Under the pieces are notes generated by a model, which made no database searches, was not told the origin of the DNA, and worked only from the letters and a program-made list of their open reading frames with translations. From a virus, in the IMG/VR virus record IMGVR_UViG_3300045988_165550, positions 40,311 to 104,310 of that record: a DNA stretch of 64,000 bases, one strand, 5' to 3'. Made by a program: the position numbers and the translations under genes. The stretch's first letter is position 1; each line of letters starts with the position of its first letter. Below are positions 7,243 through 60,815 of the stretch, in pieces.

Positions 7243-7275
7243 GTTCATTGTCCCGCCCATCAAAAAATAATGTAT

Positions 7276-7283: not shown

Positions 7284-7307
7284 CAAACAGAAAAAGAAGT
7301 ATAGTAT

Positions 7308-8088: not shown

Positions 8089-8097
8089 TATCGTCCT

Positions 8098-8125
8098 ATA
8101 AATTATTAACTATAAACTATCAACT
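8098..8125 (+). repeat. heptad array AT[A/C/T]AA[C/T]T x4
   Basis: ataaatt attaact ataaact atcaact, immediately outside the TerL stop codon (8130..8132). Confidence 0.8.
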
Positions 8126-8129
8126 AAAA

Positions 8130-10133: not shown

Positions 10134-10158
10134 ATTCTTGAATTTTATTTTTATGCAA

Positions 10159-10166
10159 CAAAGTTA
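10159..10166 (-). promoter_or_regulatory. Bacteroidota -7 promoter box (minus strand)
   Basis: Plus-strand caaagtta equals TAACTTTG on the minus strand, 26 nt upstream of the TerL ATG. Confidence 0.45.
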
Positions 10167-10285
10167 TGTATTTCAAAATAAAGGGAAAGGACAATTATTT
10201 GCAGGTAAGGGTGATATTAATACGAGAAGTAGGTTAATTATTTAAAAATAAAACAATTATTTTTTAGTTTACAGATTCTTTTTGT

Positions 10286-10293
10286 TATCTTTG
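10286..10293 (+). promoter_or_regulatory. Bacteroidota -7 promoter box
   Basis: TATCTTTG lies 25 nt upstream of ATG 10318. Confidence 0.5.
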
Positions 10294-10317
10294 CACTAAT
10301 AAAAATAAAAAGTCAAT

Positions 10318-44356: not shown

Positions 44357-47263
44357 ATGAACTCACATCTCTCTATATTAATCAATGATAAGCCTGTGGC
44401 GCTCCCCGATGATTTCTCTATAGATATAGAGGATCAGAACCCGGTATTCAACGATACGGAAATGTTCTCCTATCCCTTCTCTATCCCGCTAGACGGCAAC
44501 CGCTGGCTAGTAAAGAACATCGAAGACGTTCACGCTGCTATGAAAGCCGTGAACATGGAGCACCTGCCTGTCAGAATCAATGCCGACGGATTGCCATTCC
44601 GCAGCGGTACCCTGGTTATGCAGGATGGTGAAGAGATAACCAATTCTCTCTCTATGAGCATCGATGCCAGCACGCAGAGTTTCAGCGAACTTATCAGCGA
44701 CCTGCAATGCCGTGATATTCCGGTAAAGGACCAGCTTATCATCGGTGAGAAAATTGGTAATGTGAGGGTGGATATTTGGAGTAACCCGGTAGTAAAAGTC
44801 AACCTCCATTCCGATGGTAAGAAAGGTGGAAAGAATGCCACCGCCACCGTTACGACCGACCCATTGAGAGCTAGTAAGGTGCTGGAACCACAGGCACTCG
44901 GTTTCTCCTATCCCGCAAGCTGCAAGGAATATACCTCTACTGATACGGCACACTATATCGGCGATGCCTACAACAAGAGTAAGAAATCTTATTCTTCTGG
45001 TGCGATAACAATCAATGTACCGCAAGAGACTGCCAACGGCAACTATATTAATACCTCGGCAGCCTATGACGAGACGGATGGCGCTGGCAGACCTGCTACC
45101 TACTGCAATGCCCGAATCTGTTACAAGCATCATGCCCTGGATGATGAAGGGAATACATCGAGTGACCTCATCAAAATGGATAAGTGCTCATGGACGAATG
45201 AAGACCTCTATCCTTACTGGGTGTTGGATGCCAAACGTCCGCAATCGGGCATCTGCTTCTATGTACTCTATTTCCTCGACTGCCTCTTTACCTATTTGGG
45301 TGTCACCTTCGATAAGGATGCGCTGATGGAGATAGAAGACTTGAAGCATCTCTGTTTTTTCACTACCGTTTGCAGTTATGATACCCTCGAGCATCCACAC
45401 CACGGTAGTTATTACACTGCGAGTGAAATTCAGAAAGCAAAGGACATCGTGAATAAAGAGGGCTACGTAAAAGGCTCGAATCCTGAGATGGAAATCGTGG
45501 CTGCTAAATCCGTAGGCGAAATCAAGACGGGCTTCTTTAAGGATCAGAAGCATATCAATTCCTGGTTGGAGAGCCGTGGCTGCGGCGGTCAGATTGAAAT
45601 CACCAAGGCAGAAGATAAGGACGTGCAGGAACTCGACCTTACGCTGACTGAAAACGGTGTGGCTACCACCCGCCATATCCAGGTGGGCGAGGTAGTTGCT
45701 TTTCCTCCTGGCAAGGGAATGAAAGTAACAGGTATCACCATCGAATCGAATATCAAGAAGTTTGAGGTGCAGGCAAACGTGCTCTATATGGTTGCCAACA
45801 GCGAGAATTTCCCTGACGAGAGCGTGAGCACTGTCATCTCTTCTCTAGAAAACGCATTCGGTATCAAGTTCTCCTACGATTACGAGCAGAAGAAGGTCAC
45901 GGCTTATCTCACTCGCGACGTGATGCGAAAGAGCGGCAGAAAGACTAGGGATTTCCACTGCGAAATCCATTCGATGATTCCGATGACCGAGAAGATTACT
46001 GGTGTGCGTATGCGCTATTCAGCCGAGGAGGATGCTAAGGAACAGAAGAGTTATGTGCGCAACGCCAAAGGCGAATTAAAGGATTCCAGCTACGATACCG
46101 ATTACAACTTCATCGACTATCCACTGCCCGATGGCGACACCAGCAAGATGGGTAGAACCGTCACCGATATGAAGTACATTGAGTTCTTCCATAACATCCA
46201 TAACCCTGGTGATAAAAACTGCTACATCGACCGCAACACCGGCAATGCCTATTGTGTAAAGGTCAACAAGGAGGCAAAGACTTCCAACGAGTTAAAGCCA
46301 GTACTCTTCGAGGTAGGTCAGTTCAAGGGTGTGGAATATGGAGATTGCAGTGAGGAGAATGAAGATTTCATACACGATATTTCCATTGATTTCACTCCAG
46401 TACCTTTCAATGATGTGAATTATTTCAAGGAGGTAAAGGCAGCCTATGGTTCGCATACAGGTGACGTGACTGACTTTGAAGGCAAGCCTTTGCTAAAAAG
46501 TGTAGTGCAGATTACAGAGGCTCAGCAGCCCATCCTCTGCGCTTATGTAGATGAGGATATGGAGCACGAGTTTGTAGAGCAGGAAATCAACCAGGTTATC
46601 TCCTCTGCCTTCTGCAATTACTATATGAAGCAGAAACTGAAGCTCGTGGAAAGCTACGACCCTTCTGGCACGGATGATGGCAACTCACCGTTGCAGGATA
46701 AATCACGATGGGGCTTTGCCCTGGCATTAATGCGTGGTGGCGGTAGCGATGCCACCCTGCAACCCTACGATTATAACTACGACCATTTCGGCACGTCAAA
46801 ATGGCGAACCAATGCGGGACAGTATGCCCTGGCTTGCGACTCGCTGGATATGATGGGCAATGTGTTTGATTATAATGGTGTGCAGGAAGGTGTAGGCACC
46901 GGCGAACGTTTCTCGCTGAAGATACGTGCTTTCAAGGAACCATCGTGGCTGAAAGATCCGAAGTATAAGGATTTGGTACTCTGCAATGCCGATGAAGTAG
47001 ATGAGAACGGCAAGGTGGTGACTAAAATCCGCTCCCGTGGCTTATTTGATACCTTCATTCTCCCATACGCCTATTTCCTTCTGAACAGAAAGAAGTTTAT
47101 GGTGAGATGTACCACCACCGTAGCGCAAGTGGCCGATATACCGAATCACTGGCAGGATTGGTGGAATATAGGTGGCATGAAATGCCTCATAGACAAGGTG
47201 AATACTACCATTGATGCCAAGACAGGCATGGGCGAAGTAGAGTTAACGGTATACGCTTTATAA
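44357..47263 (+). CDS. large tail/baseplate structural protein
   Basis: 968-aa ORF in the late operon. No enzymatic motif recognised. Confidence 0.55.
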   Translation: MNSHLSILINDKPVALPDDFSIDIEDQNPVFNDTEMFSYPFSIPLDGNRWLVKNIEDVHAAMKAVNMEHLPVRINADGLPFRSGTLVMQDGEEITNSLSMSIDASTQSFSELISDLQCRDIPVKDQLIIGEKIGNVRVDIWSNPVVKVNLHSDGKKGGKNATATVTTDPLRASKVLEPQALGFSYPASCKEYTSTDTAHYIGDAYNKSKKSYSSGAITINVPQETANGNYINTSAAYDETDGAGRPATYCNARICYKHHALDDEGNTSSDLIKMDKCSWTNEDLYPYWVLDAKRPQSGICFYVLYFLDCLFTYLGVTFDKDALMEIEDLKHLCFFTTVCSYDTLEHPHHGSYYTASEIQKAKDIVNKEGYVKGSNPEMEIVAAKSVGEIKTGFFKDQKHINSWLESRGCGGQIEITKAEDKDVQELDLTLTENGVATTRHIQVGEVVAFPPGKGMKVTGITIESNIKKFEVQANVLYMVANSENFPDESVSTVISSLENAFGIKFSYDYEQKKVTAYLTRDVMRKSGRKTRDFHCEIHSMIPMTEKITGVRMRYSAEEDAKEQKSYVRNAKGELKDSSYDTDYNFIDYPLPDGDTSKMGRTVTDMKYIEFFHNIHNPGDKNCYIDRNTGNAYCVKVNKEAKTSNELKPVLFEVGQFKGVEYGDCSEENEDFIHDISIDFTPVPFNDVNYFKEVKAAYGSHTGDVTDFEGKPLLKSVVQITEAQQPILCAYVDEDMEHEFVEQEINQVISSAFCNYYMKQKLKLVESYDPSGTDDGNSPLQDKSRWGFALALMRGGGSDATLQPYDYNYDHFGTSKWRTNAGQYALACDSLDMMGNVFDYNGVQEGVGTGERFSLKIRAFKEPSWLKDPKYKDLVLCNADEVDENGKVVTKIRSRGLFDTFILPYAYFLLNRKKFMVRCTTTVAQVADIPNHWQDWWNIGGMKCLIDKVNTTIDAKTGMGEVELTVYAL

Positions 47264-47282
47264 CATAAAAAACAAAATAAAA

Positions 47283-48485
47283 ATGGATAGAAAAATATTG
47301 ATTACCGGAACCGGTATCATTTCTGCCATGGGCAGAAATACCAGAGAAGTAGCCATGAACCTTTATAAAGGTAAATGCGGGTTGCATCATAATGAATGCC
47401 GTGATAGCTATATCTCCGATTTATGTGGAGATGTTGAAAGCTGGGAAGTAGATTATGAGAAAATCCTTACTCATGCGCAATACGAGTGTATGCCTCATCA
47501 TGGTTTCTATGTGCTCGAAGCGGTATTTGAGGCGCTGAAGAAAGCGAAGGTCGGTAAGGAGTTCCTGGAAAAACATAACGTCTCCCTCATAGTAAGCAAT
47601 GATTCTGAGTGCTACGAGAGTAGACATGTAGTAGATCATGTGAACGAGGGCGACAATAATCGTTATTTGCCGGTAACAACCTTGTTTCACTCGCTCAATT
47701 CTACTATCAGCATGAATCTGGCTACTATCCTCGGTATTCATGGCTTATCACTTACCGTGAGCGCAGCCTGTGCAGGAGGTGGCCACGCCATCGGACTGGC
47801 AAAGATGTTGCTCGATAGCAAGCAGACTGAAATGGTAATTGTGATTGGTGCGCAGGAATGCGGATCTCAATACTGCATGGAAGCATTCGATGCCCTCGGT
47901 GTCTTCTCACCCGATAAGGTGCAGCCATTCGGCAAAGGCAGAAACGGATTGGCACCATCGGGAGGTGCAGCCTGCATCGTCCTCGAACCCTCGGATAGTC
48001 TTCGTCTGAAAGAAGAGAAGGTGCCTTCCTTCGCTTCCCTTTCCGGCTATGGTTTCTCTACCAATGGAAAAGCTATCACTACCCCTGATAGCTATCAGGA
48101 GGAGGTATCTATGGTGAAAGCTATCGAGAACGCAGGATTGGACGAAGGCATGATAGATGTAGTTCTTGCCCATGCTACCGGTACCCCGATGGGCGATGAA
48201 GCCGAGGCAAAGGCAATAGAGGGGATTTTCCCTATCTGCCCGAACGTAGTAGCTACAAAGGGCATGACAGGCCACGAGTGTTGGATGGCAGGTGTATCGC
48301 AAGCCGTACAAGCTACCATCATGCTTACCTATGGCCGTCTGCTCCATGCAGCCACCACCGAGGAGAACGCCTTCCCTCATCTTAACCTGGTGATGCGCCC
48401 TAAGTATTACGATCCTCATCATATTCTCTGTAATGCCTTCGGCTTTGGTGGTACCAATTCATCCTTTATCATCTCAAAAGCATAG
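47283..48485 (+). CDS. beta-ketoacyl-ACP synthase (KAS I/II, FabF/FabB-like)
   Basis: Active-site Cys163 in LTVSAACAGGGHAI (TGT 47769..47771). The His blocks VLAHATGTPMGD and KGMTGHECWMAG are both present, as are the C-terminal NAFGFGGTNSSFII and PFGKGRNGLAPSGGAACIVLE. Confidence 0.9.
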   Translation: MDRKILITGTGIISAMGRNTREVAMNLYKGKCGLHHNECRDSYISDLCGDVESWEVDYEKILTHAQYECMPHHGFYVLEAVFEALKKAKVGKEFLEKHNVSLIVSNDSECYESRHVVDHVNEGDNNRYLPVTTLFHSLNSTISMNLATILGIHGLSLTVSAACAGGGHAIGLAKMLLDSKQTEMVIVIGAQECGSQYCMEAFDALGVFSPDKVQPFGKGRNGLAPSGGAACIVLEPSDSLRLKEEKVPSFASLSGYGFSTNGKAITTPDSYQEEVSMVKAIENAGLDEGMIDVVLAHATGTPMGDEAEAKAIEGIFPICPNVVATKGMTGHECWMAGVSQAVQATIMLTYGRLLHAATTEENAFPHLNLVMRPKYYDPHHILCNAFGFGGTNSSFIISKA

Positions 48486-48487
48486 TT

Positions 48488-48733
48488 ATGAAAAAAGAAG
48501 AAATAACCTCTCGCATTATCACCATCGTGAACAGCCTGAAAACATCGTGGGTAAAACACGAAGTAACCCCTGACTCTAATCTCCGTGACGAGGTAGAACT
48601 GGAGTCTATTGACTTTCTCGATATGATCCAGCAGGTGGAAATGATGTTCCACATTAAAATCACCCCCGAAGAAGCGAAAGATTGTAAGCTCGTTTCCGAT
48701 GTAGTCAATCTCGTAATTAAAAAGAAAGAATAA
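48488..48733 (+). CDS. acyl carrier protein
   Basis: 81 aa and acidic. The helix-II phosphopantetheine-site-like motif VELESIDFLDMIQQVE carries Ser40 (TCT 48605..48607). The gene starts 2 nt after the KS stop. Confidence 0.75.
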   Translation: MKKEEITSRIITIVNSLKTSWVKHEVTPDSNLRDEVELESIDFLDMIQQVEMMFHIKITPEEAKDCKLVSDVVNLVIKKKE

Positions 48734-48734
48734 T

Positions 48735-49793
48735 ATGGCACAGAAAATCACTCTCACATCGGGTTCCGTCTTTGCCGGAAATCCGATAACTCTCGCTATT
48801 CAGCCTAATACGCTGACCTCGAAGCCTTCCTTCCATCGGGTTATCGTAGAAGTGTATTTTGACGATGGTACGGGCAGTTATGAAACTAATAAACTCACCA
48901 TCCCCGTTACCACAGAAAAAAGAGAAGTATCGCTAGATATCTCCTCTGCTCTCCGCATTTCGCTGGATAGTTACAAGTATACTGCCACCCCGTCCACCTA
49001 CCCCGTGGTAAGCTGGTATGTAAAAGCCTACGATGAGTACATGGATAGCAACGGCGAAGTGCATACCAATGCGGGCGAAGTCTATTATCCTGCCGATGGT
49101 TCCAAGGATAGTACGAAAAATCTGCGTTGCATAGCCGGGGCCTTCAGCGATATAGAGCGATTAAAGGCAGGTGCGACCCAGTCAGTAACTCTTCTCTCCT
49201 GCAAACCTACAGACACCCACGAACTCGCCGTGGTAGGTGAAAGTTTCGTCTATCCCGTCTCCTATTCTGCAGCACAGAATCTCTTGGATAGCGCAACGCT
49301 CGAAGCCCCATCATCCGAGGAAGAGGAAATCACGCAGGAAGGTGCGCAAAGCATTCACGGACACCCCATCTATGCCCTGTCAGCCTCTGAAGCTGAAGAC
49401 CGCACCACCTTCCGTTTCATTAACCGCTTCGGTTGTTTGGAGAGTATCAGTGTTCCGAAGTCTTATTCTCAGAAGATGAACGTAGAAACTACGGAGTATA
49501 CAAAAGCGATTCAGGAAACCTTTAATGAGTTCTCTCGTTCGGTTGTAGATAAGAAGAACGATAAAGAAGGCTGGCTTTTTCAAAGCGACCCTTTAACCGA
49601 AAAATGGCTGCGATGGTATTATCACGAGTTCTTGATGAGCAAGTACGTGTGGTTAAGGGCAAGCGGTATTTGGCTCCCTTGCACCATTGCCATGGAAGAT
49701 GAGATCACCATCAAGGATAACACCAACAAAGTTATGCACTCAGTTTCCTTCACTGCAAAGCTCGGTATCAACGGAAACCCTTGTCCCTACTGA
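48735..49793 (+). CDS. hypothetical tail/baseplate protein
   Basis: 352-aa ORF with an ATGGCA start, 1 nt after the ACP stop. Confidence 0.55.
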   Translation: MAQKITLTSGSVFAGNPITLAIQPNTLTSKPSFHRVIVEVYFDDGTGSYETNKLTIPVTTEKREVSLDISSALRISLDSYKYTATPSTYPVVSWYVKAYDEYMDSNGEVHTNAGEVYYPADGSKDSTKNLRCIAGAFSDIERLKAGATQSVTLLSCKPTDTHELAVVGESFVYPVSYSAAQNLLDSATLEAPSSEEEEITQEGAQSIHGHPIYALSASEAEDRTTFRFINRFGCLESISVPKSYSQKMNVETTEYTKAIQETFNEFSRSVVDKKNDKEGWLFQSDPLTEKWLRWYYHEFLMSKYVWLRASGIWLPCTIAMEDEITIKDNTNKVMHSVSFTAKLGINGNPCPY

Positions 49794-49808
49794 TAACCAA
49801 AAACCCAT

Positions 49809-49816
49809 TATCTTTG
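49809..49816 (+). promoter_or_regulatory. Bacteroidota -7 promoter box
   Basis: TATCTTTG lies 31 nt upstream of ATG 49847. Confidence 0.45.
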
Positions 49817-49846
49817 CCGTATAATCAATAAAATTCAAAAGAAAGA

Positions 49847-51976
49847 ATGGCAACAGAAGCAAAGACCACGAATTATTGGATTTCGAGCACAGCCCTCTAT
49901 ATTCAGCTCAATGCGATGGGAGAACCCGACTACACGCAGTGCAGCGTGGCATCGGGGGCTTCCATCCTTTGCTACATGCAGGGCGTTAAGGGCTTGGAAT
50001 ACGACGCAGGGCACAACTACCAGCGGTGGCCGCTTGTAGCCTACCCTTCCATCTTCCCCGATAGCGAGAAGAAATATGTGTATGCAGCGATACCCCGCAA
50101 ACGCCTCTCGGATAACGACCAGGCTACCATCGTGTTTCCTAGTCAGCGTATTGACCTCTACGGAAAAGCCATTCTTACTACCCAAGGCGAAGATGGCTCA
50201 ACAATAGAAACCGAAGGTGAGCAGATAGGTAATGAGCAGTTTTATTATATCTTCCTGCAAGGTATTATTTCGGAGGTAAAAACTGATAGCGACGGCAAAA
50301 CTAGGATGCGAGAATGGCAGCAGCATGTAGACTGCGGCAGTCTTGCCACCGATGAAGCCCTGGCAAGCGGTGGAGAAGGTCAATGGTGGAAGTATAATAG
50401 CGTGAGCGATACCGTCACCTTCCTCAAGACCATTCAGAAGGCGGATTTCGAGGCACTGGCTGCCCAATCGGCTACCATCAACAAACTTATCCTCGGCAAA
50501 AGCGAACTCACGGGCATAGCTACTGCCGAAACGCTAGAAAATAGCAACGACAAGGTGGTAACTCCTGTATACCTAGGCTTGTTTGGAGAAAGGCATTTCT
50601 TGTCGAAAGACAAAGATGATGTTGCTCATGGAACCATTACCTTTGAGAAGATACAGAAGTTTCTCGATGGTTTGATTGCTCAAAAAGAATCAGGCTTTAA
50701 AGGTGGAGCCACTTTTGGAGAGTTTATTGAAGGCATTCTGTTCGGTACGGGTGCCCGAGTTGATTCCCTCGGAAATGCCGAGTTTGAAAGCATTACGTCC
50801 CGAAGCTCCATCATCGCCAAGGAACTTATCGTGAACCGACAGACTGCGATGGAGAGCAACTTTGTCTTTACGGAAAGCGGATTGGTGGAGAAGGTAACTG
50901 AGCATGCACCGGAAAGCGAAGGTGGCAATACAACTTACACACTCCAGCTCCAGAAGCGATGGGAGAACGATTTCACGGCATTCAAGGAGAATGATGTGAT
51001 ATTAGCTTCTATCAATACGCTGCTGCAGGATGGCAAGTATTACGATATGTGGTTACGGGTACTTAGCGTGAATACGGTGAAGAATACCATCGATGTGGTT
51101 TGTTATCCGAACAATGAGGTCCCTAGCAAGAAAAACTATCCTCCCTGCGAGCTCGCAAGACTGATCCGATGGGGTAATGCTACAGACAGGGACCGACAGA
51201 GTTGTTGGTATATTTCATCGTCCGAGGGCTTACTCGTCTGGCTCGACCACGTTACCAAGCCAATCATCGATAAGAGTAATTATTCCGTAGCTATCGGCAA
51301 GCTTCCCGATGCACTGTCGTTTATCTTTGCTGATTATCCTCTTGCCGACAAGCGCGACGGAGCTTTCTATGCCAAATATCTCGCCGTGCAGAACATTCTC
51401 CAAACCGACTACGAGGGCAATGTAAAGCAAAATGTGGTGGATAGGGGGAAATGGTCGCTGGAAACCGCCCAAGGCAACAATCCTTATCGGAGTACGAATA
51501 CTGAGGTGCATGACGTATGGCACTACGGATGCCGATGGCGATGCTTGGTTGACAAGACCACGGATGAACCTAGATACGCCAGTACAGGATGGGCGTTCGT
51601 GGAAGGCAACCCTGAGTTCTCTATTGACATATCATCTTCCAATGGCTTCCGTTTCTCGAAGAATTATATCTTCGGTTGCAGGGATGATCTTGGAGAATTG
51701 CGACCTTTTACTATCATCACGATAAGAGGTATTCTCTACAACAATGATGTGACGGAGCATTTAACCAATGTTGTATGGACCCGAGATACCGGCAATCCGA
51801 CGGAAGATAACAGATGGGCGCAGCAGGTAGCGCAGCGTAAAGATCAGATTCATTTGCCACTCACGGGTAGCGACCTGGGCGACAACTGGGGCACCAACAA
51901 TCCCTGCGTCTTTAAATGCTCGGCAGAAATCAAGGATGGAGAAGTTTTAACCTCAGAATACGAAATAGAATTTTAA
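49847..51976 (+). CDS. tail/baseplate structural protein
   Basis: 709-aa ORF. Confidence 0.55.
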   Translation: MATEAKTTNYWISSTALYIQLNAMGEPDYTQCSVASGASILCYMQGVKGLEYDAGHNYQRWPLVAYPSIFPDSEKKYVYAAIPRKRLSDNDQATIVFPSQRIDLYGKAILTTQGEDGSTIETEGEQIGNEQFYYIFLQGIISEVKTDSDGKTRMREWQQHVDCGSLATDEALASGGEGQWWKYNSVSDTVTFLKTIQKADFEALAAQSATINKLILGKSELTGIATAETLENSNDKVVTPVYLGLFGERHFLSKDKDDVAHGTITFEKIQKFLDGLIAQKESGFKGGATFGEFIEGILFGTGARVDSLGNAEFESITSRSSIIAKELIVNRQTAMESNFVFTESGLVEKVTEHAPESEGGNTTYTLQLQKRWENDFTAFKENDVILASINTLLQDGKYYDMWLRVLSVNTVKNTIDVVCYPNNEVPSKKNYPPCELARLIRWGNATDRDRQSCWYISSSEGLLVWLDHVTKPIIDKSNYSVAIGKLPDALSFIFADYPLADKRDGAFYAKYLAVQNILQTDYEGNVKQNVVDRGKWSLETAQGNNPYRSTNTEVHDVWHYGCRWRCLVDKTTDEPRYASTGWAFVEGNPEFSIDISSSNGFRFSKNYIFGCRDDLGELRPFTIITIRGILYNNDVTEHLTNVVWTRDTGNPTEDNRWAQQVAQRKDQIHLPLTGSDLGDNWGTNNPCVFKCSAEIKDGEVLTSEYEIEF

Positions 51977-51987
51977 TTTTTTTAATT

Positions 51988-53172
51988 ATGGCTTTAGCAA
52001 GAAGTAACAGAAAGAAAATGGAGAAAGCTCCTGTCATTTACTCAATGCTCTGCAATATCGAAGTAATGGCAGATGGTTACACTCCTACTACGCAGAATTA
52101 CGATGCGGTCAGCGGAATCTTTTTTCCTGATTATTCGGCTTCGCCACTCAACCTTTTTCCTCGCTGCGTCTTGATTGATCCGGATTCGCCCGTAGCTTCC
52201 AAGACCTACAACAGTATGCTGAAATCGTTTGAGTGGTTTGAGGTGACGAAAAACGGAACGGTTTCCATCTATTCCAAGGGCGGTACGGTGGCTAGTGGCT
52301 ACCAAGTGATTGCATCCGGCGACTACACGGGTCAGCTCGTCGTCAAGAAAAACGGTAAGGTAGGCGAACCGAGAGCTTTGCGATTCGTAGGTATCTACGA
52401 GGAGGACGGTTACACCTACAAATTCGACCGAAGTATTCCTCTTATCACGAATGATGTGACTCCGGCAGGTTCCGAACTGATGATTGATTCACCTGCGGCA
52501 CTCGCCTACAACCCTCTCCGTATGCCCGAGCAGCAAACCATCAACGTAACCGTTATCAAGGGTACCACGGATATAACGAACGACGAGCGATGCAAGTTGA
52601 TGTGGTATCGACGTGACGCAAGGGGGACGGAAACGCCGCTCACCGCCAACGCCGATTATGATAATATCGAGGTGGTTTCCGCCGTGAAGAGCAAAAACGG
52701 CAGTATCACATCGCTGGTTATCGACCGTGAACTGATTGGTGAAGGACAGACCTACGTAGTTTACGCCATGTTCCGGGCTGATAAGAAGTTCCCTAGCTCG
52801 CCCGAGCCTTCCGATTCACGAGCCTATACCACCATCAAGCGCCAGTTTCCGCCCCTTACGTGCATCATCCGTGGCGATGGTCTCCGTTCTACGACGGATG
52901 CCAACTGCGTGAAGGCGATCGTAAGCGACAACCAGGGTGTACTCGACAACTGGAACAGATACCTTTACGCTTCATGGAAGGTGTCAGACGGAACCACGGA
53001 GATAGAAAGAGCACGCGGCGAAGAGGTGATGCTGCCTGCTGAATACGGCAAGGATTTCTTTTGCGATATTGAAGATAGAGGGACCAACAAGGTAATGGTT
53101 TCCGATACGGGTGAATGGCTTACCGATACCGATGGCAGCGTTATCATCACAAGAGATTACGAGGGTGATTGA
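51988..53172 (+). CDS. hypothetical tail protein
   Basis: The start was chosen at ATGGCT 51988 in an A/T-rich context. The track ORF 51916 would overlap the upstream gene by 61 nt. Confidence 0.55.
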   Translation: MALARSNRKKMEKAPVIYSMLCNIEVMADGYTPTTQNYDAVSGIFFPDYSASPLNLFPRCVLIDPDSPVASKTYNSMLKSFEWFEVTKNGTVSIYSKGGTVASGYQVIASGDYTGQLVVKKNGKVGEPRALRFVGIYEEDGYTYKFDRSIPLITNDVTPAGSELMIDSPAALAYNPLRMPEQQTINVTVIKGTTDITNDERCKLMWYRRDARGTETPLTANADYDNIEVVSAVKSKNGSITSLVIDRELIGEGQTYVVYAMFRADKKFPSSPEPSDSRAYTTIKRQFPPLTCIIRGDGLRSTTDANCVKAIVSDNQGVLDNWNRYLYASWKVSDGTTEIERARGEEVMLPAEYGKDFFCDIEDRGTNKVMVSDTGEWLTDTDGSVIITRDYEGD

Positions 53173-53222
53173 TACCTCGATATTTTTAATATTTAGTATT
53201 TAATGCTTAAAAGATACATATT

Positions 53223-53690
53223 ATGCCTTATTATGTTAAAGTAACAAAGAAGGTGAGAGAGGCATTGTTGCCTGCTTACCTGGTAGTGCAGAGAACCTTC
53301 GATGGTAATTATCTGCTTTTTCAGTCTGCTCTCTCTAAGGTAGAGGGTAATACACTCTCCGAAAGATGTGCCGCTGTGGGCGGTTCGCTGATTACTCCTC
53401 TAGAGGTGGCTGGCGAGGTGAACGGCACAAGCTGCGCATCCTGCTACACCCCGAAGGAATATGGCGGAGACGAGGACGAGGACACTACTGAGGATTTCCG
53501 CCCAGGAGAGAACATTGAAGTCCTTCAGCCGGGAGAGAATGTTGAAGTTCCTCAGCCGGGAGAAAATTCTGAATCTCCAAAACCTGAGAAGAATACTGAA
53601 ACCCCTACCCCATCGGAGACTGAAGCAGAGAAGAAAACAGAGTCAGAAACAGATAAAAAAGAAAGTGAGGTAACAGATGAGCAAAAGTAG
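53223..53690 (+). CDS. hypothetical protein with PGEN-repeat acidic tail
   Basis: 155-aa ORF whose C-half is encoded by 27-nt tandem repeats. Confidence 0.5.
   Translation: MPYYVKVTKKVREALLPAYLVVQRTFDGNYLLFQSALSKVEGNTLSERCAAVGGSLITPLEVAGEVNGTSCASCYTPKEYGGDEDEDTTEDFRPGENIEVLQPGENVEVPQPGENSESPKPEKNTETPTPSETEAEKKTESETDKKESEVTDEQK
53502..53582 (+). repeat. 27-nt tandem repeat x3 (coding)
   Basis: ccaggagagaacattgaagtccttcag / ccgggagagaatgttgaagttcctcag / ccgggagaaaattctgaatctccaaaa, encoding (R/Q)PGEN-x-E-x-(L/P)(Q/K) units. Confidence 0.8.
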
Positions 53691-54816
53691 TGCAACCTTC
53701 AGAATTATCAGCATCTCGAATGGTAAGACTTATTACACCATCATGCAGTGTGACCAGGGCGATATTAACCAGTTCTATGATGATAGCGGTGCAGTGTTCC
53801 CTACCTTTGGAGGAACTAACTGCCCTACGGTGATATTCCTGGTTTATGATTCAGAGAATAGTGCCAAGTCTATCGTGGTGCCTGATGCCAACATCAAGTG
53901 GTTTGTGAATGGCGTGGAACTCGCCTTCTCCGGACAGATTTCTACCAACAAATTCAACGGCAGCGAAACCGGTCATTTCAAGCGCATCACCAAAACCATT
54001 AACGGTGTAAACATCCAGTGCCTTCAGATTATCAAGAATCTGACGGGCATTAACAGTAGAAGTTCATTTGCCATCACTGCCACCGCTACGGGTTTGGTAG
54101 AGAATACAAGCACCGAACTTTCCGCCCAGTTCCCTGTGACTATTGCCTATGGTGATACATCATCCAAGAAAGTAAGAATCCAGTCTCCTGCCAGCTATAA
54201 GGGTACTCCTTTCACCATTGAGGCGAGAGGTGGACAATGCCAGATTCAGGCCGTGGTTGTAACAAACTCGGGCGAAGGCTTCACGGTGGATGGCTATTTC
54301 TTTGAATGGTTCCAGCAGAAGGACGGCGCATGGACGAACCTTAATACTGATTCGGGGGCACATACGCTTACCGTATTGGAGACGATGGTTAACGGCAGTG
54401 CGTTGTTCATGTGCAAGGTGTATAGCGACGCAGGTAAACAGAATCTCTATGGCACGGATATTTGTAGCGTCAATGATATTTCCGACCCTTGGCAGGTTTT
54501 CCCTAACCCTGTGGCTAGCGAGACGAGCGACAAGCCTGCTACGCTGGTCTGCGTAAAGGGGAGCGGTATAGCTGCTGTCTTCAAGCCTTACGTTAAATCA
54601 GGTTCCAACAAGCTTGCCGCTGACAAATGTTCATTCACCATGGGCTTGTTTAATTCAGCAGGAACCAAGCTCAACGGAAAAGATTCGGCGGGCTACAATC
54701 CTCCGTTCCTTGATTCCGATAAGAAGACGGTTTTCGTGATTCCGGAGCCGTTTATCTCAGACAATGGTGGTATTGACGGCGAGATTGTCTGTGAGATTAC
54801 CGAAACTCAAAAATAG
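53677..54816 (+). CDS. hypothetical tail protein
   Basis: 379-aa ORF that overlaps the previous gene by 14 nt. Confidence 0.55.
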   Translation: MSKSSATFRIISISNGKTYYTIMQCDQGDINQFYDDSGAVFPTFGGTNCPTVIFLVYDSENSAKSIVVPDANIKWFVNGVELAFSGQISTNKFNGSETGHFKRITKTINGVNIQCLQIIKNLTGINSRSSFAITATATGLVENTSTELSAQFPVTIAYGDTSSKKVRIQSPASYKGTPFTIEARGGQCQIQAVVVTNSGEGFTVDGYFFEWFQQKDGAWTNLNTDSGAHTLTVLETMVNGSALFMCKVYSDAGKQNLYGTDICSVNDISDPWQVFPNPVASETSDKPATLVCVKGSGIAAVFKPYVKSGSNKLAADKCSFTMGLFNSAGTKLNGKDSAGYNPPFLDSDKKTVFVIPEPFISDNGGIDGEIVCEITETQK

Positions 54817-54822
54817 TTAGTT

Positions 54823-57561
54823 ATGACATTAGTTCGTGGAACGTTTAATATATCTAGCGTAGCAAACGGTGAGGATGCAGTCTCTTACGAGATTGTACCC
54901 TCTACCCGTTCGTTGCTCATAGAAGCTAATGGTAACTGGGCAGACGGCACGACAACAAGCGAGGGGTATGCCAAGATTACTTGTTCGGTATACAAGGTGG
55001 TCGGTTCCCAGCGAGAGTTGTGTATCGAGAAGTTGTACTATGTTGCGGACGGCGCTTTCATTAAAAGTTTTGCGTTCGATAAGGGTGTTTTTACTCTACT
55101 GATCCCCCGCAGTGCCACTGTAGTGGATGTTTCCGTCTTTGCTAGGGATAAAACTACAAATAAGTCTATCGGTGATCCGCTCGCTATGATAAGCATCCCT
55201 ATCATCCATAATGGAGCCAATGGCACCAGCGGCGCATCTCTCTTATGTCAGTATTCCGCTGATAATACAAATTGGCACGACGGATTTACTCCAGGCGACG
55301 TGTGGATGCGACAAAAACTGAGCACCGACATTGTCTGGAGCGGCTCGATGCGCATTGTAGGCGAGCCGGGAAAGTCTGGCGCGAACGGCAGTTACACGGA
55401 ATACTCTTTCGGCATCAGCGCAACAGAGAGCGTGGCGAGCTCGGCAATTTCCCCCGGTGTTGAAACTTGGCATGATATGCCTATCCCTACCACAAAAGAT
55501 AAGCCTTATCTGTGGATGAGGGTTATCAAGGTAGATAAAAAGGGCAATGAGTCTGAGCCAGCTTATTCTCGTCTGAACGGCAAGGATGGCAACAACGGAA
55601 CGTCGGTGAGCATCAAAGGCTCGAAACCTTCATCTTCTGCGCTGCCTAGCTCCGGTCAGAAGATGGGCGACTGCTATCTTATCAATGGTGAACTATGGGT
55701 GTATACGGGTGAAACGGGTTCGGGCATCGTTAACGGATTCGTGAACTGCGGCAACATCAAGGGCGAACCTGGCAACTCGGCAGTTCAGTATTTCTACCAC
55801 ATGGCATGGGCCACCGGAATCAAGACGGATTCTTCCGGCACGATGGTGGACGTGGAAGGTTTTACTACTTCCAATCCGGCTGGCTTGTCTTATGCGTATA
55901 TGGGCGTATGCTACAACACCGTAAGCAGCCCCGACCCTAGCGACTGGAATCAGTATAAATGGGTGAAGGTGGAAGGCAAAGATGCCGTAACCTACGAGAT
56001 AAAGCTGGATTCAAACACCGTGTCTGCCGACGGAAAGACGGGTAAATTCCTGACAACCAAGTTGGGTAAATATCGCCTTCTCAGGCATACGGGTGACAAG
56101 ACGGAGAACTGTTCGGGTATCTTAGATACCCTCGATTTTCTTATATTTCCGATAGGAGCGGATGGCGAGGCGCTTGGTGTTCTTTCGGGCGATAAGGATA
56201 GCGATATATATGGCACTATCACGGGTAATGGTCTCAAGGAAGAAAACGTATATCAGATAAAATTCTTCTGGTATTCAGGTCCCGCCGCTGTAGCTAATAG
56301 ATACAATTATCTTCAGGCGCTTAAAAAGACACAGGGTATTCCTACATCTACCATGGTGATTTCCGTTCTTGCCAGCAACACCTTCACCGTACTCCGTCAG
56401 GGAGTGGATGGCGAACGTGGCAGCAGTGGAGCCGTATGGCGGCAGCATCGTGGCTTTGTGGAAGCATCGGAGACGGCAACTTACAAGTATGAAGCTGGCG
56501 GAAATGATGAGAAGTTTATAGATGCAGTGCTTCTCACAGGCGCAAGCGGCAAGAAGACGTGGTATAGATGTATACAATCATATTACTCCACCGGCAAGTC
56601 TGATTCAAGGAATATTGTAGGTTCTACTGAGTTTGCCAAGTATTGGGATTCAGCCTATATGACGGTGGATTTCATCGCCACCGATTTCTTTCTTTCAGAG
56701 AATGCCAAGATTAATCTGTTGGGGTCTAACGAAATCAATCTCACGGATAAGAACGGACAGATTTTCGGTTCATACAGAATCCCTTCAAAGAATGGCGATG
56801 ATGGCGTGTATGCCTTGTGGCTAGGTGCGGCAACTGGAGGTGATGCTCCATTCTCGGTGACGAAATCCGGCGAGATATATAGTGTAAGCGGAACTATTGG
56901 CGGATTCAGAATCGGGGAGTATGGTCTCGGTACCCGTGAGGGCAGCAATATGTTCCTTAAGAATGACTATATTCATTTCGGAAACTTTGCAGCCCTTACC
57001 AATTTCGACGGATATTGTATAGAACTGGGCAGAAGGAATCACCGTTGCCTGACGGCTGTTTCTTCTTCCAGTAGCGGTAATGATATTTATGAAGGTGGTT
57101 TTTTCTCTGTTCTTGTCAATAGGCCAATAGCCAAATATGCTGCTGCCCTACATTTGCAATGCGATTGGACGATTGATGCTGGAGAGATTGATATGACAAA
57201 TGCATACGAAGGCAACCATGCCATACTCATCGAATCGGGCGATGTGGCAGGTATCAGACCTTCTTTTGTCCGCATTAATAAAGACTTGGCTCTATCCGAC
57301 TACAATTTTAACGTCGAGTGCTATAATGAGACTAACACAATAACCCTGACGCTGCCTGCTAGTCCGAAATGGGGACAGCATTATGTGGTTATCCAGCGTG
57401 GCAATGGGCGGATAAACTTCAAGTCAGCACTCAACACCAATATCCACGACCTCAACAGTGGCGCAAATGACAAAACCTGGTATTCCGGCACTCGGGGGCA
57501 GGTAACTTGGTTCTGGTATGACGGTACGGAATGGATGGTGAGATATGTAAATAGACAATAA
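54823..57561 (+). CDS. tail fibre-like protein
   Basis: 912 aa, Gly/Ser/Thr-rich with a beta-rich composition. It is the last large gene before the DGR target. Confidence 0.55.
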   Translation: MTLVRGTFNISSVANGEDAVSYEIVPSTRSLLIEANGNWADGTTTSEGYAKITCSVYKVVGSQRELCIEKLYYVADGAFIKSFAFDKGVFTLLIPRSATVVDVSVFARDKTTNKSIGDPLAMISIPIIHNGANGTSGASLLCQYSADNTNWHDGFTPGDVWMRQKLSTDIVWSGSMRIVGEPGKSGANGSYTEYSFGISATESVASSAISPGVETWHDMPIPTTKDKPYLWMRVIKVDKKGNESEPAYSRLNGKDGNNGTSVSIKGSKPSSSALPSSGQKMGDCYLINGELWVYTGETGSGIVNGFVNCGNIKGEPGNSAVQYFYHMAWATGIKTDSSGTMVDVEGFTTSNPAGLSYAYMGVCYNTVSSPDPSDWNQYKWVKVEGKDAVTYEIKLDSNTVSADGKTGKFLTTKLGKYRLLRHTGDKTENCSGILDTLDFLIFPIGADGEALGVLSGDKDSDIYGTITGNGLKEENVYQIKFFWYSGPAAVANRYNYLQALKKTQGIPTSTMVISVLASNTFTVLRQGVDGERGSSGAVWRQHRGFVEASETATYKYEAGGNDEKFIDAVLLTGASGKKTWYRCIQSYYSTGKSDSRNIVGSTEFAKYWDSAYMTVDFIATDFFLSENAKINLLGSNEINLTDKNGQIFGSYRIPSKNGDDGVYALWLGAATGGDAPFSVTKSGEIYSVSGTIGGFRIGEYGLGTREGSNMFLKNDYIHFGNFAALTNFDGYCIELGRRNHRCLTAVSSSSSGNDIYEGGFFSVLVNRPIAKYAAALHLQCDWTIDAGEIDMTNAYEGNHAILIESGDVAGIRPSFVRINKDLALSDYNFNVECYNETNTITLTLPASPKWGQHYVVIQRGNGRINFKSALNTNIHDLNSGANDKTWYSGTRGQVTWFWYDGTEWMVRYVNRQ

Positions 57562-57898: not shown

Positions 57899-58642
57899 AT
57901 GGGTATTCAAACAAAGAAAATGAGCGAGTGGCTTGCCGCAAACGGGCAGGCTATTACTAATGCTTCAGCAGTAAGCATGAAGGCTTACATGGAGCAAAAC
58001 CTGCGTTCTTTACAGGATGGTGTTTACATCGGTAAGATCCAGAAGGAAACATGGGGAACTTACATGAGATGCGACCCATGGCAGACTACGGAGATCGGTA
58101 TCAAAAAAGCCGATGCCGATGCTATTGTCGTTCAGCACGGCAGTCTGCGTCTCGGTATTGCCTTAACCGAACCTGGTGCTATGAAGTGGGGCAGTGTTCA
58201 GAATGAAAATTCTGTAGGTTATCAGACATCCAGCGATTGGAGCCTTCTCGACGGTAAGACGAGAACAGCGGCAGTGATGGCTAGTAGTTATTACAAGAAC
58301 GATGATCCTGCTACCTACGCCGTAGCATATTGCTACAAATATTCAAAATCGCACACTGGCGACCCTGGAGGAGATGTGAGCATCCCCGCCAAGTCATGGT
58401 ATCTTCCTGCAACTGGCGAACTTGAGATTATCCGATCTCATTTCGAGACCGTCAATCTTGCTTTGCAGCGAATCAAGAATGCAGGCAAGCAGAGTGCTGA
58501 TTTGCTCCAGCGGACGGCTTACTGGTCTAGTGTCGAGAATTCCGGCAACTATGCGTGGAATCTGAACTTTGGCGGTGGCATTCACGGCGGCGACGGTAAG
58601 GTTGACGCTTCGTTTCGAGTTCGCCCGGTCACAGCATTTTAA
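57899..58642 (+). CDS. DGR target protein, DUF1566 / C-type-lectin-fold-like receptor-binding protein
   Basis: The C-terminal WYLPATGELEII...YWSSVENSGNYAWNLNF...VRPVTAF matches the DUF1566 pattern. Its last 130 nt are the VR of the adjacent DGR. Confidence 0.9.
   Translation: MGIQTKKMSEWLAANGQAITNASAVSMKAYMEQNLRSLQDGVYIGKIQKETWGTYMRCDPWQTTEIGIKKADADAIVVQHGSLRLGIALTEPGAMKWGSVQNENSVGYQTSSDWSLLDGKTRTAAVMASSYYKNDDPATYAVAYCYKYSKSHTGDPGGDVSIPAKSWYLPATGELEIIRSHFETVNLALQRIKNAGKQSADLLQRTAYWSSVENSGNYAWNLNFGGGIHGGDGKVDASFRVRPVTAF
58509..58638 (+). repeat. DGR variable repeat (VR)
   Basis: 130 nt, collinear with the TR at an offset of 859 nt. There are 14 mismatches, and at all of them the TR base is A. 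Confidence 0.92.
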
Positions 58643-58672
58643 TCATTTTATCTCTTTATCTCTTTACCTCTT

Positions 58673-58687
58673 CCGGCCGTAGGCCGG
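58673..58687 (+). other. GC hairpin downstream of VR
   Basis: ccggcc-gta-ggccgg, 35 nt after the VR end. It is comparable in position to the hairpin/cruciform that assists DGR target recognition. Confidence 0.4.
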
Positions 58688-58710
58688 CAAGCAAGAATGC
58701 CGATCAAGAA

Positions 58711-58738
58711 AAGTCTGGCGGCGTAAGCCGCCGGACTT
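58711..58738 (+). terminator. hairpin with GTAA loop after the target gene
   Basis: aagtc-t-ggcggc-gtaa-gccgcc-g-gactt. No clear T-run follows. Confidence 0.4.
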
Positions 58739-58867
58739 CTGTACCCTTCCATAAAAGAGCATGCGGCAGTTTTTTGTACAGTTGAGGTATTTTGATACGT
58801 ATAAAAAAAATTACAAAAAAAATATAACGCTATCACGATTTATTAGCAGCATAATTGATAAATATTT

Positions 58868-59215
58868 ATGGCTTTAGCAAAGGATTTACAGATATACAAG
58901 GATACGTTCGAACTGGTTGATAAACTCACGGAGATGAAACAGAATTTTCCGCGAATGTATCGCTATGATCTGGGTGAAAAGATGACGAACGTTGCGCTCG
59001 AACTCTTTGAATATATCCAGCTAGCGAATATGTATGCGGATAGTCGCCATCACTACATGATGGGATTCCGTGTCAAGTTTGAACTCCTTAAAACAATCCT
59101 TCGCCTTGCTTTCCGTAGAAAGCTATTCTCGGAGAAGCAGGCCGCGGATATTTGTCGGTTAACTACCATCATCGGTAGACAGGCTACAGCTTGGGGAAAT
59201 TCAAAGAAAGGTTAG
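58868..59215 (+). CDS. avd: Avd-like four-helix-bundle accessory protein of the DGR
   Basis: 115 aa and basic, with the pattern of the 23S-rRNA-IVS / four-helix-bundle family (LQIYKDTFELV...RYDLGEKM...). It sits between the target gene and the TR. Confidence 0.8.
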   Translation: MALAKDLQIYKDTFELVDKLTEMKQNFPRMYRYDLGEKMTNVALELFEYIQLANMYADSRHHYMMGFRVKFELLKTILRLAFRRKLFSEKQAADICRLTTIIGRQATAWGNSKKG

Positions 59216-59367
59216 TCCTGCTCTGAATTAAAAGCAAGAGTACAATCGGCTAAGGTTTATTGTAGAATGTGACTCTCCATTAATAATGGTCTCGCCGCTG
59301 TCACCTCGCACCGTCATTTGTACGACGGAGCGAAGCAGCTAAGATGTATAACCCAGAGCGAGAAAAT

Positions 59368-59497
59368 AGCGGACGAATTACTGGTCTAGTGTCGAGAATT
59401 CCGGCAACAATGCGTGGAATCTGAACTTTGACAATGGCAATCACGGCAACAACGGTAAGGTTGACAATTCGAATCGAGTTCGCCCGGTCACAGCATT
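59368..59497 (+). repeat. DGR template repeat (TR)
   Basis: Non-coding 130-nt copy of the VR, rich in AAC/AAT triplets, 31 nt upstream of the RT start. Confidence 0.92.
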
Positions 59498-59528
59498 AGT
59501 TTGAAGAGTTAGAGAAATAGGAACAATT

Positions 59529-60815
59529 ATGGTAAAGGAAGAAGATATATTAGAGGCTTATGAGAATTGTCTAAAAGATAAGGCATCATCTCCTGATGCT
59601 ATCAGGTTTGTTGTAAATCTCTTTGAGAATATCACAGATTTAACGGATGCTATCAACTCTCGTACCTACGAACCGCTTCCATCCATAACATTTGTCGTTT
59701 CTCGGCCTGTATACCGGGAGGTATTCGCTGCTAATTTTCGTGATAGAGTTATTCATCACTACATCGCACTTCGATTAGAACCGCTATTCGAAGGCGTGTT
59801 CAGCGAGAGAACTTATAATTGCCGTAAGGGTAAAGGACAGCTATATGGTGTCATGCAGTTGGCGGCAGATATTAAGGAATGTTCCGAAAACTTCACTCGT
59901 CCATGCTGGTATCTGAAATGCGACATGAAAGGATTCTTTATGAGCATACCCCGAAAGCAGTTGGCAGATAAGGTAGATAAGTTTATTCTCGAAAATTACA
60001 AGGGCGATGATATAGAAGATTTACGCTATCTGTCTCGTGTAACAATTATGAATGATCCTACGAAGAATTGCATCAGGCGTTCTCCTGAAGAAATAATGAA
60101 GATGGTTCCGGCAGGAAAGACGCTGAGGGGCGCGAAGCCTGGCCATGGTCTCCCTATCGGGAATCTCACGAGCCAGCATGATGCCAACTTCTGGCTCAAT
60201 GATTTTGATTGGATGTTTGATATATTCCTCCATATCTATTGGCATGGGCGATATGTCGATGATTTCTACGTGATTTATCCCGATAAGCAGTCGTTACTCG
60301 ATGCGATTCCTAAAATCCGATCTTATCTGATAGTTTTAGGCGCAACCCTACATCCTAGAAAGATAGAAATGCAGTCGGTATATAAAGGCATCACATTTAC
60401 GGGTATGGTAGTGAAGCGGGATAGGATTTACGCCAGCAACCGCATGGTAAGCAACTTCGAGCAGTTGATTCATTACATGAATACGCTCTCCGAGGGCTTC
60501 AGCATAGAAACGCTGCAACATTACGTCTGTTCCATCAATAGCTATCTTGGCTTGATGCGTCATTGCAATAGCTACGATATACGCAAGCGGATCATGCTGA
60601 AGATGGATAGACGTTTCTATCGGTTTCTCTACATTAAAGGTAGGTATGAATGTGTGCGTATCAAACAGAAATATAAAAGAGATTTAATAAACAGGAAGTT
60701 ACTGCGGAATAATAATTCCAAGAACTTTGATATATTGATAAACAATTATTATGACGAAAATGAAAATCATAAGAGCAGACCTTCCTACCGAGAAGGAGAT
60801 AAGCTCGCTTCTTGA
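59529..60815 (+). CDS. DGR reverse transcriptase
   Basis: RT motifs are present: NFRDRVIHH, the DGR-diagnostic LPIGNLTSQ (I/LGxxxSQ) and the catalytic YVDDF. Confidence 0.92.
   Translation: MVKEEDILEAYENCLKDKASSPDAIRFVVNLFENITDLTDAINSRTYEPLPSITFVVSRPVYREVFAANFRDRVIHHYIALRLEPLFEGVFSERTYNCRKGKGQLYGVMQLAADIKECSENFTRPCWYLKCDMKGFFMSIPRKQLADKVDKFILENYKGDDIEDLRYLSRVTIMNDPTKNCIRRSPEEIMKMVPAGKTLRGAKPGHGLPIGNLTSQHDANFWLNDFDWMFDIFLHIYWHGRYVDDFYVIYPDKQSLLDAIPKIRSYLIVLGATLHPRKIEMQSVYKGITFTGMVVKRDRIYASNRMVSNFEQLIHYMNTLSEGFSIETLQHYVCSINSYLGLMRHCNSYDIRKRIMLKMDRRFYRFLYIKGRYECVRIKQKYKRDLINRKLLRNNNSKNFDILINNYYDENENHKSRPSYREGDKLAS

Follow-up and report, generated by a model that had tools for sequence, protein, structure and literature searches.

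We analyzed a 64,000-nucleotide (nt) stretch of viral DNA (IMG/VR record IMGVR_UViG_3300045988_165550, positions 40,311 to 104,310), here called the window, in which a ketosynthase (KS) gene and an acyl carrier protein (ACP) gene lie next to each other among the tail genes of a phage. Pfam and PHROG annotation of the window proteins identified the source as a tailed phage, and the window encodes a 2095-amino-acid (aa) tape-measure protein, head protease, primase, endolysin, holin, ThyX, and tail and tail-fiber proteins. The KS-ACP pair and the sequences that border it are as follows.

44357-47263, plus strand: p968, 968 aa, putative baseplate hub or tail-associated protein (AlphaFold2 [AF2] model, Foldseek), not part of the cassette; its gene is called the hub gene below
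47264-47282, plus strand: 19-nt A-rich spacer between the hub gene and the KS gene, the left insertion boundary by alignment with relatives
47283-48485, plus strand: KS, 400 aa, predicted FabB/ApeR-like elongating β-ketoacyl-ACP synthase (Pfam N and C domains, FabB matches in the PDB)
48488-48733, plus strand: ACP, 81 aa, with the phosphopantetheine serine at Ser40 (LESIDFLD)
48735-49793, plus strand: p352, 352 aa, conserved β-rich protein of the hub block, not part of the cassette

The KS has both Pfam ketosynthase domains (PF00109, ketoacyl-synt N, 94.1 bits, 1.4e-26; PF02801, C domain, 64.6 bits, 1.1e-17; cut-off of 20.8 for each), and its best sequence matches in the PDB are FabB structures (4xox, 2e-39, and also 1dd8). 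Alignment to the FabB structures and to phage and host homologs places the active site at Cys163 (SAACAGG), His297 (AHATGTPMGD), and Lys326/His331 (TKGMTGHECWMAG), and Thr299/Thr301, Asp305/Glu308, and the FGFGGTN loop align with FabB as further active-site residues. An earlier reading made from the sequence alone (the original prediction) had described a 400-aa KS with a complete Cys-His-His triad, and the Pfam domains, the FabB alignment, and the conservation of all active-site motifs in 79 of 79 phage copies confirm it. The protein is predicted to be an intact elongating ketosynthase of β-ketoacyl-ACP synthase type I/II in the thiolase superfamily.

The KS missed every NCBIfam equivalog cut-off (TIGR03150 fabF, 171.7 bits versus 493.75; NF005935 FabB, 164.2 versus 630), and by these sequence criteria it is not an ortholog of the housekeeping FabF or FabB. 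It shares its fold, domain pair, catalytic residues, and length with the FabB and FabF enzymes of Escherichia coli and Vibrio, but it is only about 26 to 30% identical to them and carries GHECWMAG, which includes Trp334, in place of GHSLGAAG/GHLLGAAG. The longer form of this signature, TGHECWMAG, is invariant in the phage KS copies and common to KS1, a Bacteroidota ketosynthase described below. The KS matched no PHROG family, and a tblastn search of 50,697 GenBank phage records returned only matches of at most 28% identity, plus MT837464 at 37%. The latter record (MT837464.1, locus L004; 6,820 bp, labeled "Bacteriophage sp.") was rejected as a phage KS, since its gene content (a NusG/UpxY-like gene, a FabG-like short-chain dehydrogenase/reductase [SDR], a KS1 with TGHECWMAG, and several lipoprotein-like open reading frames [ORFs]) points to a Bacteroidales chromosomal fragment that was probably misfiled.

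The ACP was likewise confirmed as an 81-aa carrier protein with a phosphopantetheine serine: it matched PF00550 (PP-binding) at 29.6 bits (8.4e-7; cut-off, 20.8) and PHROG 5934, "acyl carrier protein," at 6e-7, and Ser40 was kept in 64 of 64 phage ACP copies. It fell below the NCBIfam ACP cut-offs (best model NF002150, 48.2 bits versus 66), and its motif is ESID, not the DSLD of E. coli and Vibrio AcpP. This ACP is the co-inherited partner of the KS.

The intergenic gaps on the plus strand are 19 nt (p968 to KS), 2 nt (KS to ACP), and 1 nt (ACP to p352), and the ORF list agrees exactly with the original prediction on these distances between the 968-aa and 352-aa genes. Consensus and terminator scans of the window also bore out its observation that no promoter box or terminator surrounds the pair: no Bacteroidota-type promoter (-33/-7 consensus) was found near it, sigma-70 promoter hits were at chance level, and no convincing plus-strand terminator lay next to it. 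Transcription of the pair in the window probably continues from the hub operon, and late expression is expected because the cassette there has no promoter or terminator of its own. The original prediction had also taken an AT-rich 5' part of the KS gene as a hint of acquisition. The dip itself was seen, with GC contents of 0.405 to 0.42 (47.0 to 47.6 kb) and 0.407 (48.4 to 48.8 kb) at the two ends of the pair versus about 0.48, and the idea of acquisition was right. However, comparable dips occur at 42.4 and 53.0 kb, so the dip is not diagnostic of acquisition. As a sign of recent acquisition it was rejected, since the cassette is also old, with identity tiers of 58 to 98% within the phage group that shares this arrangement.

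The cellular relatives of the pair point to a specific biosynthetic setting. A scan for the TGHECWM signature in 185,579 species genomes found more than 580 relatives, of which the 80 best were kept; among these 80, nearly all those with 32 to 41% identity to the phage KS were from Bacteroidota (including Bacteroides, Prevotella, Alistipes, and Muribaculaceae). The closest cellular relatives, at 34 to 41% identity, are KS1 enzymes encoded beside a ketoreductase (KR), in a KS1-ACP1 pair. Crude gene calling, clustering, and Pfam searches gave a conserved host context for KS1: an aromatic amino-acid ammonia-lyase (TAL), an SDR/KR, the KS, an 82-aa ACP, an LpxL-type (lipid-A-type) acyltransferase, two proteins of the 4HBT thioesterase fold, pairs of a KS and a chain length factor (CLF), and a second ACP, with an O-methyltransferase, an MMPL exporter, and an FAD oxidoreductase also present. 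We take this context to be a flexirubin/aryl-polyene type II polyketide synthase (PKS) cluster. The KS1 family is carried by Prevotella species.

Comparison with the flexirubin and aryl-polyene KSs, as the original prediction had proposed, placed the phage KS beside KS1 by both the signature and the neighbor-joining trees. In the trees, all phage KSs form one clade (73/100) beside host KS1 (68/100), apart from the other cluster KS/CLF paralogs and from FabB-like enzymes, and this clade includes the copies from a phage group and from a T4-like phage in which the pair lies elsewhere in the genome. The ACP is consistent with this placement, being closer to the ACP that follows host KS1 (best match, 45 bits) than to the second ACP of the cluster (27 bits). 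Thus, the phage pair shares with Bacteroidota KS1-ACP1 the KS-then-ACP order, TGHECWMAG after the second catalytic His, the full Cys-His-His/Lys site, and a sister placement of the KS, with the phage ACP nearest the KS1-following ACP. It differs in sequence, at only 34 to 41% identity for the KS and about 30 to 34% for the ACP, and in its surroundings, a structural operon with no TAL, KR, dehydratase/thioesterase, CLF pair, acyltransferase, or MMPL exporter nearby. The single phage KS clade suggests, with moderate support, one capture that was followed by spread between phages.

The phage group to which the window belongs is very abundant in human-gut metagenomes, with hundreds of protein clusters and more than 100 KS clusters at 88 to 92% identity, many of them on contigs of 90 to 110 kb; among the KS-bearing contigs of the group, one is labeled Caudoviricetes sp. 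A DNA similarity search with the 44- to 50-kb region against the 50,697 GenBank phage records gave no match. Looking for the KS-ACP-tail arrangement in related phages, another check that the original prediction had raised, returned the same order in about 60 independent viral contigs (50 to 110 kb; many samples and three data sources). In this group (clade A), the order p605-DUF6712-p371-p217-hub-KS-ACP-p352-p709 is kept and KS identity spans 98% down to 58%. The ratios of nonsynonymous to synonymous substitution rates were 0.118 for the KS, 0.146 for the ACP, 0.114 for the hub gene, and 0.123 for p352; the KS and ACP are thus under purifying selection similar to that on their neighbors.

Outside clade A, the pair is either missing or placed differently. 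In sister phages (clade B), p352 starts directly after the hub gene, and the same block has neither KS nor ACP; the clade B hubs are 44 to 51% identical and p605 is at 70 to 87% in most, and near-complete clade B genomes were absent from the KS-signature scan. In a third group of phages of about 100 kb (clade C; loci L066, L333 to L336, L339 to L342, and L344), the pair occurs in the reversed order, ACP-KS, mostly directly or one gene (379 aa) after the tape-measure gene and before primase-like and ThyX genes. In one clade C genome (L066/L266), the hub gene lies about 46 kb from the pair. In L066, where the pair lies at 9741-11368, the KS also contains about 40 inserted aa ahead of its Lys-His motif. 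Finally, a T4-like contig (L343; IMGVR_UViG_3300045988_148428, 160,875 bp) carries a KS-ACP pair (377 and 82 aa, the KS being of the GHECWM family) at 5989-7355, between dNMP (deoxynucleoside monophosphate) kinase and 5'-3' exonuclease genes and a T4-type TerL gene; this contig also encodes a clamp loader. Three genomic contexts were therefore found for the pair: between the hub gene and p352, after the tape-measure gene, and near TerL. Since it is present, absent, or differently placed among related phages, the cassette behaves as mobile cargo inserted at gene boundaries, and we read its location among tail genes as fortuitous rather than as pointing to a role in the virion.

Small repeats lie at the boundaries of the cassette in many relatives. 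A structured hairpin repeat separates the hub gene from the KS gene in many clade A phages, with a length of about 120 nt in L001 (9880-10000) and about 170 nt in L148 (8376-8548). It was matched in 27 loci, 25 times at the hub-KS site and in L022 and L026 at a second site. It contains the motifs CGCCCTGTAAGGGCA (twice) and CCCAGGGCAACACCCTGGG, folds with a z score of -3.1, and is absent from the window; Rfam gave no family above threshold for the hairpin elements. The element could be a mobile repeat, a carrier of a terminator or promoter, or an att core, and the second copy in some phage genomes favors a mobile repeat. In some relatives, the KS and ACP genes are parted by 30 to 370 nt of inserted palindromic repeats, and in some a spacer separates the ACP gene from p352, so that tight coupling is limited to the window and the phages closest to it. 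Arrays of palindromic repeats resembling repetitive extragenic palindromes (such as GGCGGATTTGAAATCCGCC) were observed in L036 (11204-11572) and in L007 and L009 (11200-11300 and 11480-11560). Small repeats seem to accumulate preferentially at the intergenic sites that border the cassette.

One contig (L149; ENA ERZ27287102 k141_404959, 118,111 bp) joins Prevotellaceae genes (1-8549) to phage DNA exactly at the repeat element upstream of the KS. These genes encode Kup, ThiF, RecD2, a GH109-like protein, and an ABC-F protein identical to WP_118312820, whose cluster also contains Segatella copri proteins. Either this is the junction of a prophage, or a repeat common to phage and bacterium gave rise to a chimera. 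The pair as a lysogenic-conversion gene at an att site was considered and rejected, since in L149 it is inseparable from a shared-repeat chimera and the second copy of the element favors a mobile repeat. From this contig, the host is probably Prevotella/Segatella.

The original prediction had recognized no partner enzymes in the window and had reasoned that the pair would have to rely on host lipid metabolism. Pfam scans of the other 42 window proteins agreed, and the inspection was extended with precomputed annotations of about 20 kb of flanking sequence and 25 ORFs from about 16 kb more, so that about 98 of 104 kb was covered (the window plus about 34 kb from the same or close genomes). No phosphopantetheinyl transferase (PPTase), malonyl transferase/acyltransferase, KR, dehydratase (DH), enoyl reductase, or thioesterase was found in this sequence, nor were the TAL, dehydratase/thioesterase, KS-CLF pairs, acyltransferase, or exporter of the host cluster. 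The scans found instead GNAT acetyltransferases, ParA, DnaN, DUF4942, and LPD29. As no partner enzymes are encoded there, the pair must work with host lipid or polyketide enzymes, and as the partner families of the cluster are absent, it is a derivative of the cluster rather than a member of it.

We consider it reasonably probable that KS-ACP is a host-derived two-gene accessory cassette of the moron or auxiliary-metabolic type, inserted between the hub gene and p352 in one subclade of gut Bacteroidota phages of about 100 kb, with host polyene lipids as the most likely target. Under this proposal, a host PPTase would attach phosphopantetheine to the phage ACP, and host FabD would charge it with malonate. 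The KS, acting as a homodimer, would then catalyze a decarboxylative Claisen condensation between an acyl or aryl-acyl primer and malonyl-ACP, and host KR, DH, and acyltransferase enzymes would complete the product. The pathway most likely to be augmented or redirected in this way would be that of a host outer-membrane polyene lipid (aryl-polyene/flexirubin-like), and general type II fatty-acid synthesis would be the alternative target. A precedent is ApeR, a FabB-like KS that acts as a homodimer beside the KS-CLF heterodimer and increases aryl-polyene throughput; its published key residues are Tyr135 and Phe202 (PMC8358021). In gene position, host KS1 beside a ketoreductase is the analog of ApeR beside the ketoreductase ApeQ. 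Aryl polyenes are described as outer-membrane lipids that protect against oxidative stress (PMC13532178), and gut Bacteroidota phages often carry oxidative-stress genes and two-gene inserts of lipid or cell-wall enzymes (PMC8008677), which makes a phage role in a polyene-lipid pathway plausible. A fuller version of the proposal, which we put forward only tentatively, is that a minimal KS and ACP were captured once from a Bacteroidota flexirubin/aryl-polyene pathway and spread among unrelated gut phages (two lineages of about 100 kb and a T4-like phage), where they would reprogram synthesis of an outer-membrane polyene lipid or a related polyketide, with effects such as raised oxidative-stress tolerance or an altered cell surface.

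Several observations weigh against an accessory cassette directed at polyene lipids. Every clade A genome seen carries the cassette, as would also be expected if it were essential in that clade. Lacking its own promoter and terminator, the pair in the window would be expressed late, and late expression is a poorer fit with protection of the host. The phage KS is only 34 to 41% identical to host KS1 and may therefore have a new substrate, the joint node of phage KSs and KS1 reached only 41/100, and we infer both the product and the pathway. When the KS1 cluster was sought in Segatella copri, only "Prevotella sp." names were recovered, and the host lead comes from one possibly chimeric contig (L149). 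The inspection for partner enzymes covered about 98 of the 104 kb.

General support of type II fatty-acid synthesis is the main rival to the polyene-lipid reading. The pair would then serve as an extra FabB/FabF and AcpP for the supply of acyl groups to membrane lipids and lipid A, with no polyene connection. The best matches among solved structures are FabB enzymes, the best NCBIfam models are fabF and FabB, and the phage encodes no aryl-starter enzymes (TAL or ligase) in the sequence inspected; in addition, some of the phages with the cassette, such as the T4-like phage of L343, may infect hosts that have no aryl-polyene cluster. However, the FabF and FabB equivalog cut-offs were missed widely (172 versus 494 and 164 versus 630 bits), the TGHECWMAG signature and the tree group the KS with the cluster-specific KS1 and not with housekeeping KSs, and the phage ACP is closest to a cluster ACP. 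We therefore regard this explanation as unlikely.

Chemistry linked to the virion is improbable. The original prediction had connected the pair to the tail and suggested virion lipidation or an adsorption ligand; in such a case, KS and ACP would build an acyl or polyketide group that is put on a protein of the tail or baseplate, such as p352 or the hub, or that serves as a ligand or membrane anchor in adsorption or DNA injection. The link to tail function fails because clade B has an adjacent and conserved hub gene and p352 without the cassette, clade C keeps its hub gene about 46 kb from the pair, and the T4-like phage places the pair among replication and packaging genes. Additionally, no acyltransferase that could transfer a product to a protein is encoded in the sequence inspected, and the tight coupling is lost in many relatives. 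These observations outweigh the close packing of the pair (gaps of 19, 2, and 1 nt) between hub-like p968 and p352, the order fixed throughout the roughly 60 clade A contigs, and the clade C pair that also follows a tail gene, the tape-measure gene; no evidence points to either lipidation or a ligand.

A host-takeover decoy, in which the phage ACP and KS would bind and sequester host fatty-acid or polyketide synthesis partners or malonyl units and shut down lipid or pigment synthesis, is very improbable. Such a role would be compatible with the encoding of only two of the many components needed and with the strong divergence from host homologs (34 to 41% identity), but a decoy would not need conserved catalytic residues, and the catalytic residues are kept in 79 of 79 KSs and the carrier serine in 64 of 64 ACPs, under purifying selection. 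We give practically no credence to an artifact, that is, an assembly chimera (which the original prediction had listed as a possible flaw) or bacterial contamination that put a host KS-ACP in a phage contig as the junction of L149 exactly upstream of the KS might suggest, since about 60 independent contigs, drawn from three data sources and many samples, share the hub-KS-ACP-p352 order, no bacterial copy found comes closer to the phage genes than 34 to 41% identity, and the L149 junction lies within a repeat element that is absent from the window.

The cassette resembles several known phage systems in part. Like the lambdoid morons lom and bor, it consists of accessory genes among late structural genes that are absent in close relatives and are associated with extra intergenic sequence. 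A classical moron has a promoter and a terminator of its own and is transcribed from the prophage, whereas neither signal was found for the cassette in the window. The phage ACPs of PHROG 5934 ("moron, auxiliary metabolic gene and host takeover") are likewise small carriers without a full pathway, but the present ACP travels with a cognate ketosynthase. The closest parallel in layout is the ispD and licD insert of some "Flandersviridae" (Benler et al. 2021, PMC8008677), where two adjacent host-derived lipid or envelope enzymes also interrupt a conserved module of abundant gut Bacteroidota phages; only some members of that group have them, and they have been read as serving phage-host interaction. 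That insert concerns isoprenoid and phosphocholine chemistry and lies in a replication module, in contrast to the ketosynthase and ACP in a baseplate module described here.

No description of a KS-ACP cassette in phages was found in the literature searched. A type II PKS-derived ketosynthase-ACP cassette common to several gut phage lineages is thus apparently undescribed, whereas phage ACPs alone are an already known auxiliary gene family. An intact and selected KS and ACP in at least three phage lineages implies that infection alters the lipid or polyketide chemistry of a dominant gut bacterium. Biofilm formation and tolerance of oxidative stress are both influenced by the aryl-polyene-type lipids of the outer membrane, so a phage lever on their pathway, if true, would bear on host fitness, phage receptor surfaces, and possibly immune recognition. 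If phages do reprogram polyene lipid or polyketide synthesis, this would be the first case of a virus manipulating a type II PKS pathway. The cassette is also a clean example of how a position in a structural operon is no evidence of a structural role.

The genes around the pair account for its setting. The AF2 model of p968 had a predicted local distance difference test (pLDDT) score of 85 and a predicted template-modeling score of 0.84. Foldseek matches to the PDB were weak but coherent, covering about 120 to 145 residues at E values of 8.7e-3 or higher, and nearly all those of appreciable probability were baseplate hubs: the phage 7-7-1 baseplate (E value of 8.7e-3, probability of 0.99), the Mu gp44-type structures 3cdd, 3d37, and 1wru, and the AFP, VgrG, diffocin, and pyocin hubs. 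In BFVD, 63 matches to large uncharacterized Caudovirales proteins were found, and p968 has 292 diverse relatives. It had no Pfam, PHROG, or PDB sequence match, and a 48-sequence profile searched against PDB sequences also found nothing. With moderate confidence, p968 may be assigned as a baseplate hub or tail-associated protein. All p352 homologs found were on contigs of this phage group, and they are unnamed; p352 had no match in Pfam, PHROG, or the PDB, including a profile search of PDB sequences. Its AF2 model was poor (pLDDT of 62), and a resemblance to FN3/Ig-like domains is a hint only.

Downstream of p352 follow tail and fiber genes and a complete diversity-generating retroelement (DGR).

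49847-51976, plus strand: p709, matching PHROG 26822 and 17422, both of unknown function
51985-53172, plus strand: tail protein p395 (PHROG 3267, "tail protein")
53677-54816, plus strand: tail protein p379 (PHROG 3267, "tail protein")
54823-57561, plus strand: p912, 912-aa tail fiber (tail-fiber families PHROG 3890 and 3904)
57899-60815, plus strand: complete DGR (RVT_1/PHROG 1423, bAvd, and Lcl_C)
57899-58642, plus strand: DGR target ORF, 247 aa, weak Lcl_C match, just after the fiber gene, with the variable repeat (VR) at its 3' end (58509-58638)
58868-59215, plus strand: DGR bAvd
59368-59497, plus strand: DGR template repeat, a 130-nt direct repeat with the VR at 89% identity
59529-60815, plus strand: DGR reverse transcriptase (RVT_1/PHROG 1423)

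The tail and fiber block at 49847-57561 varies among relatives. The structural-type setting given in the original prediction is upheld by the hub-like p968, the PHROG tail proteins, the tail fiber, and the DGR target, which form a tightly packed block on the plus strand, and these genes together support a structural setting for the cassette.

The window's placement on its 104,310-bp contig fits a circular or permuted genome, and an identical KS sequence is also present on a 104,360-bp contig. Outside the window (L188, 11500-21482; L154, 1-10000), a ParA-type ATPase (AAA_31/CbiA) and a DNA polymerase III β clamp were observed, which hints at plasmid-like maintenance. A 1226-aa ORF (L154, 978-4658) had no Pfam match. 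Assignment to the "Flandersviridae" was considered and dropped, since those phages have polA and no partition genes and the present genome has ParA and DnaN. Two further genes in the window are listed here.

10318-11895: 525-aa protein with four DUF4379 treble-clef zinc-finger repeats and an MTES_1575-type endonuclease domain, matching HNH/homing endonuclease PHROGs
33594-34499: full-length LysR-type transcription regulator (HTH_1 and LysR_substrate; PHROG 3736), between the head genes and the p605 block

The 525-aa protein may be a mobile endonuclease. The tail module of this phage is split in an unusual way, with the tape-measure gene (16549-22836) about 21 kb upstream of the hub and fiber block (44357-57561) and with primase, ThyX-type, head protease, putative capsid, and regulator genes in between.

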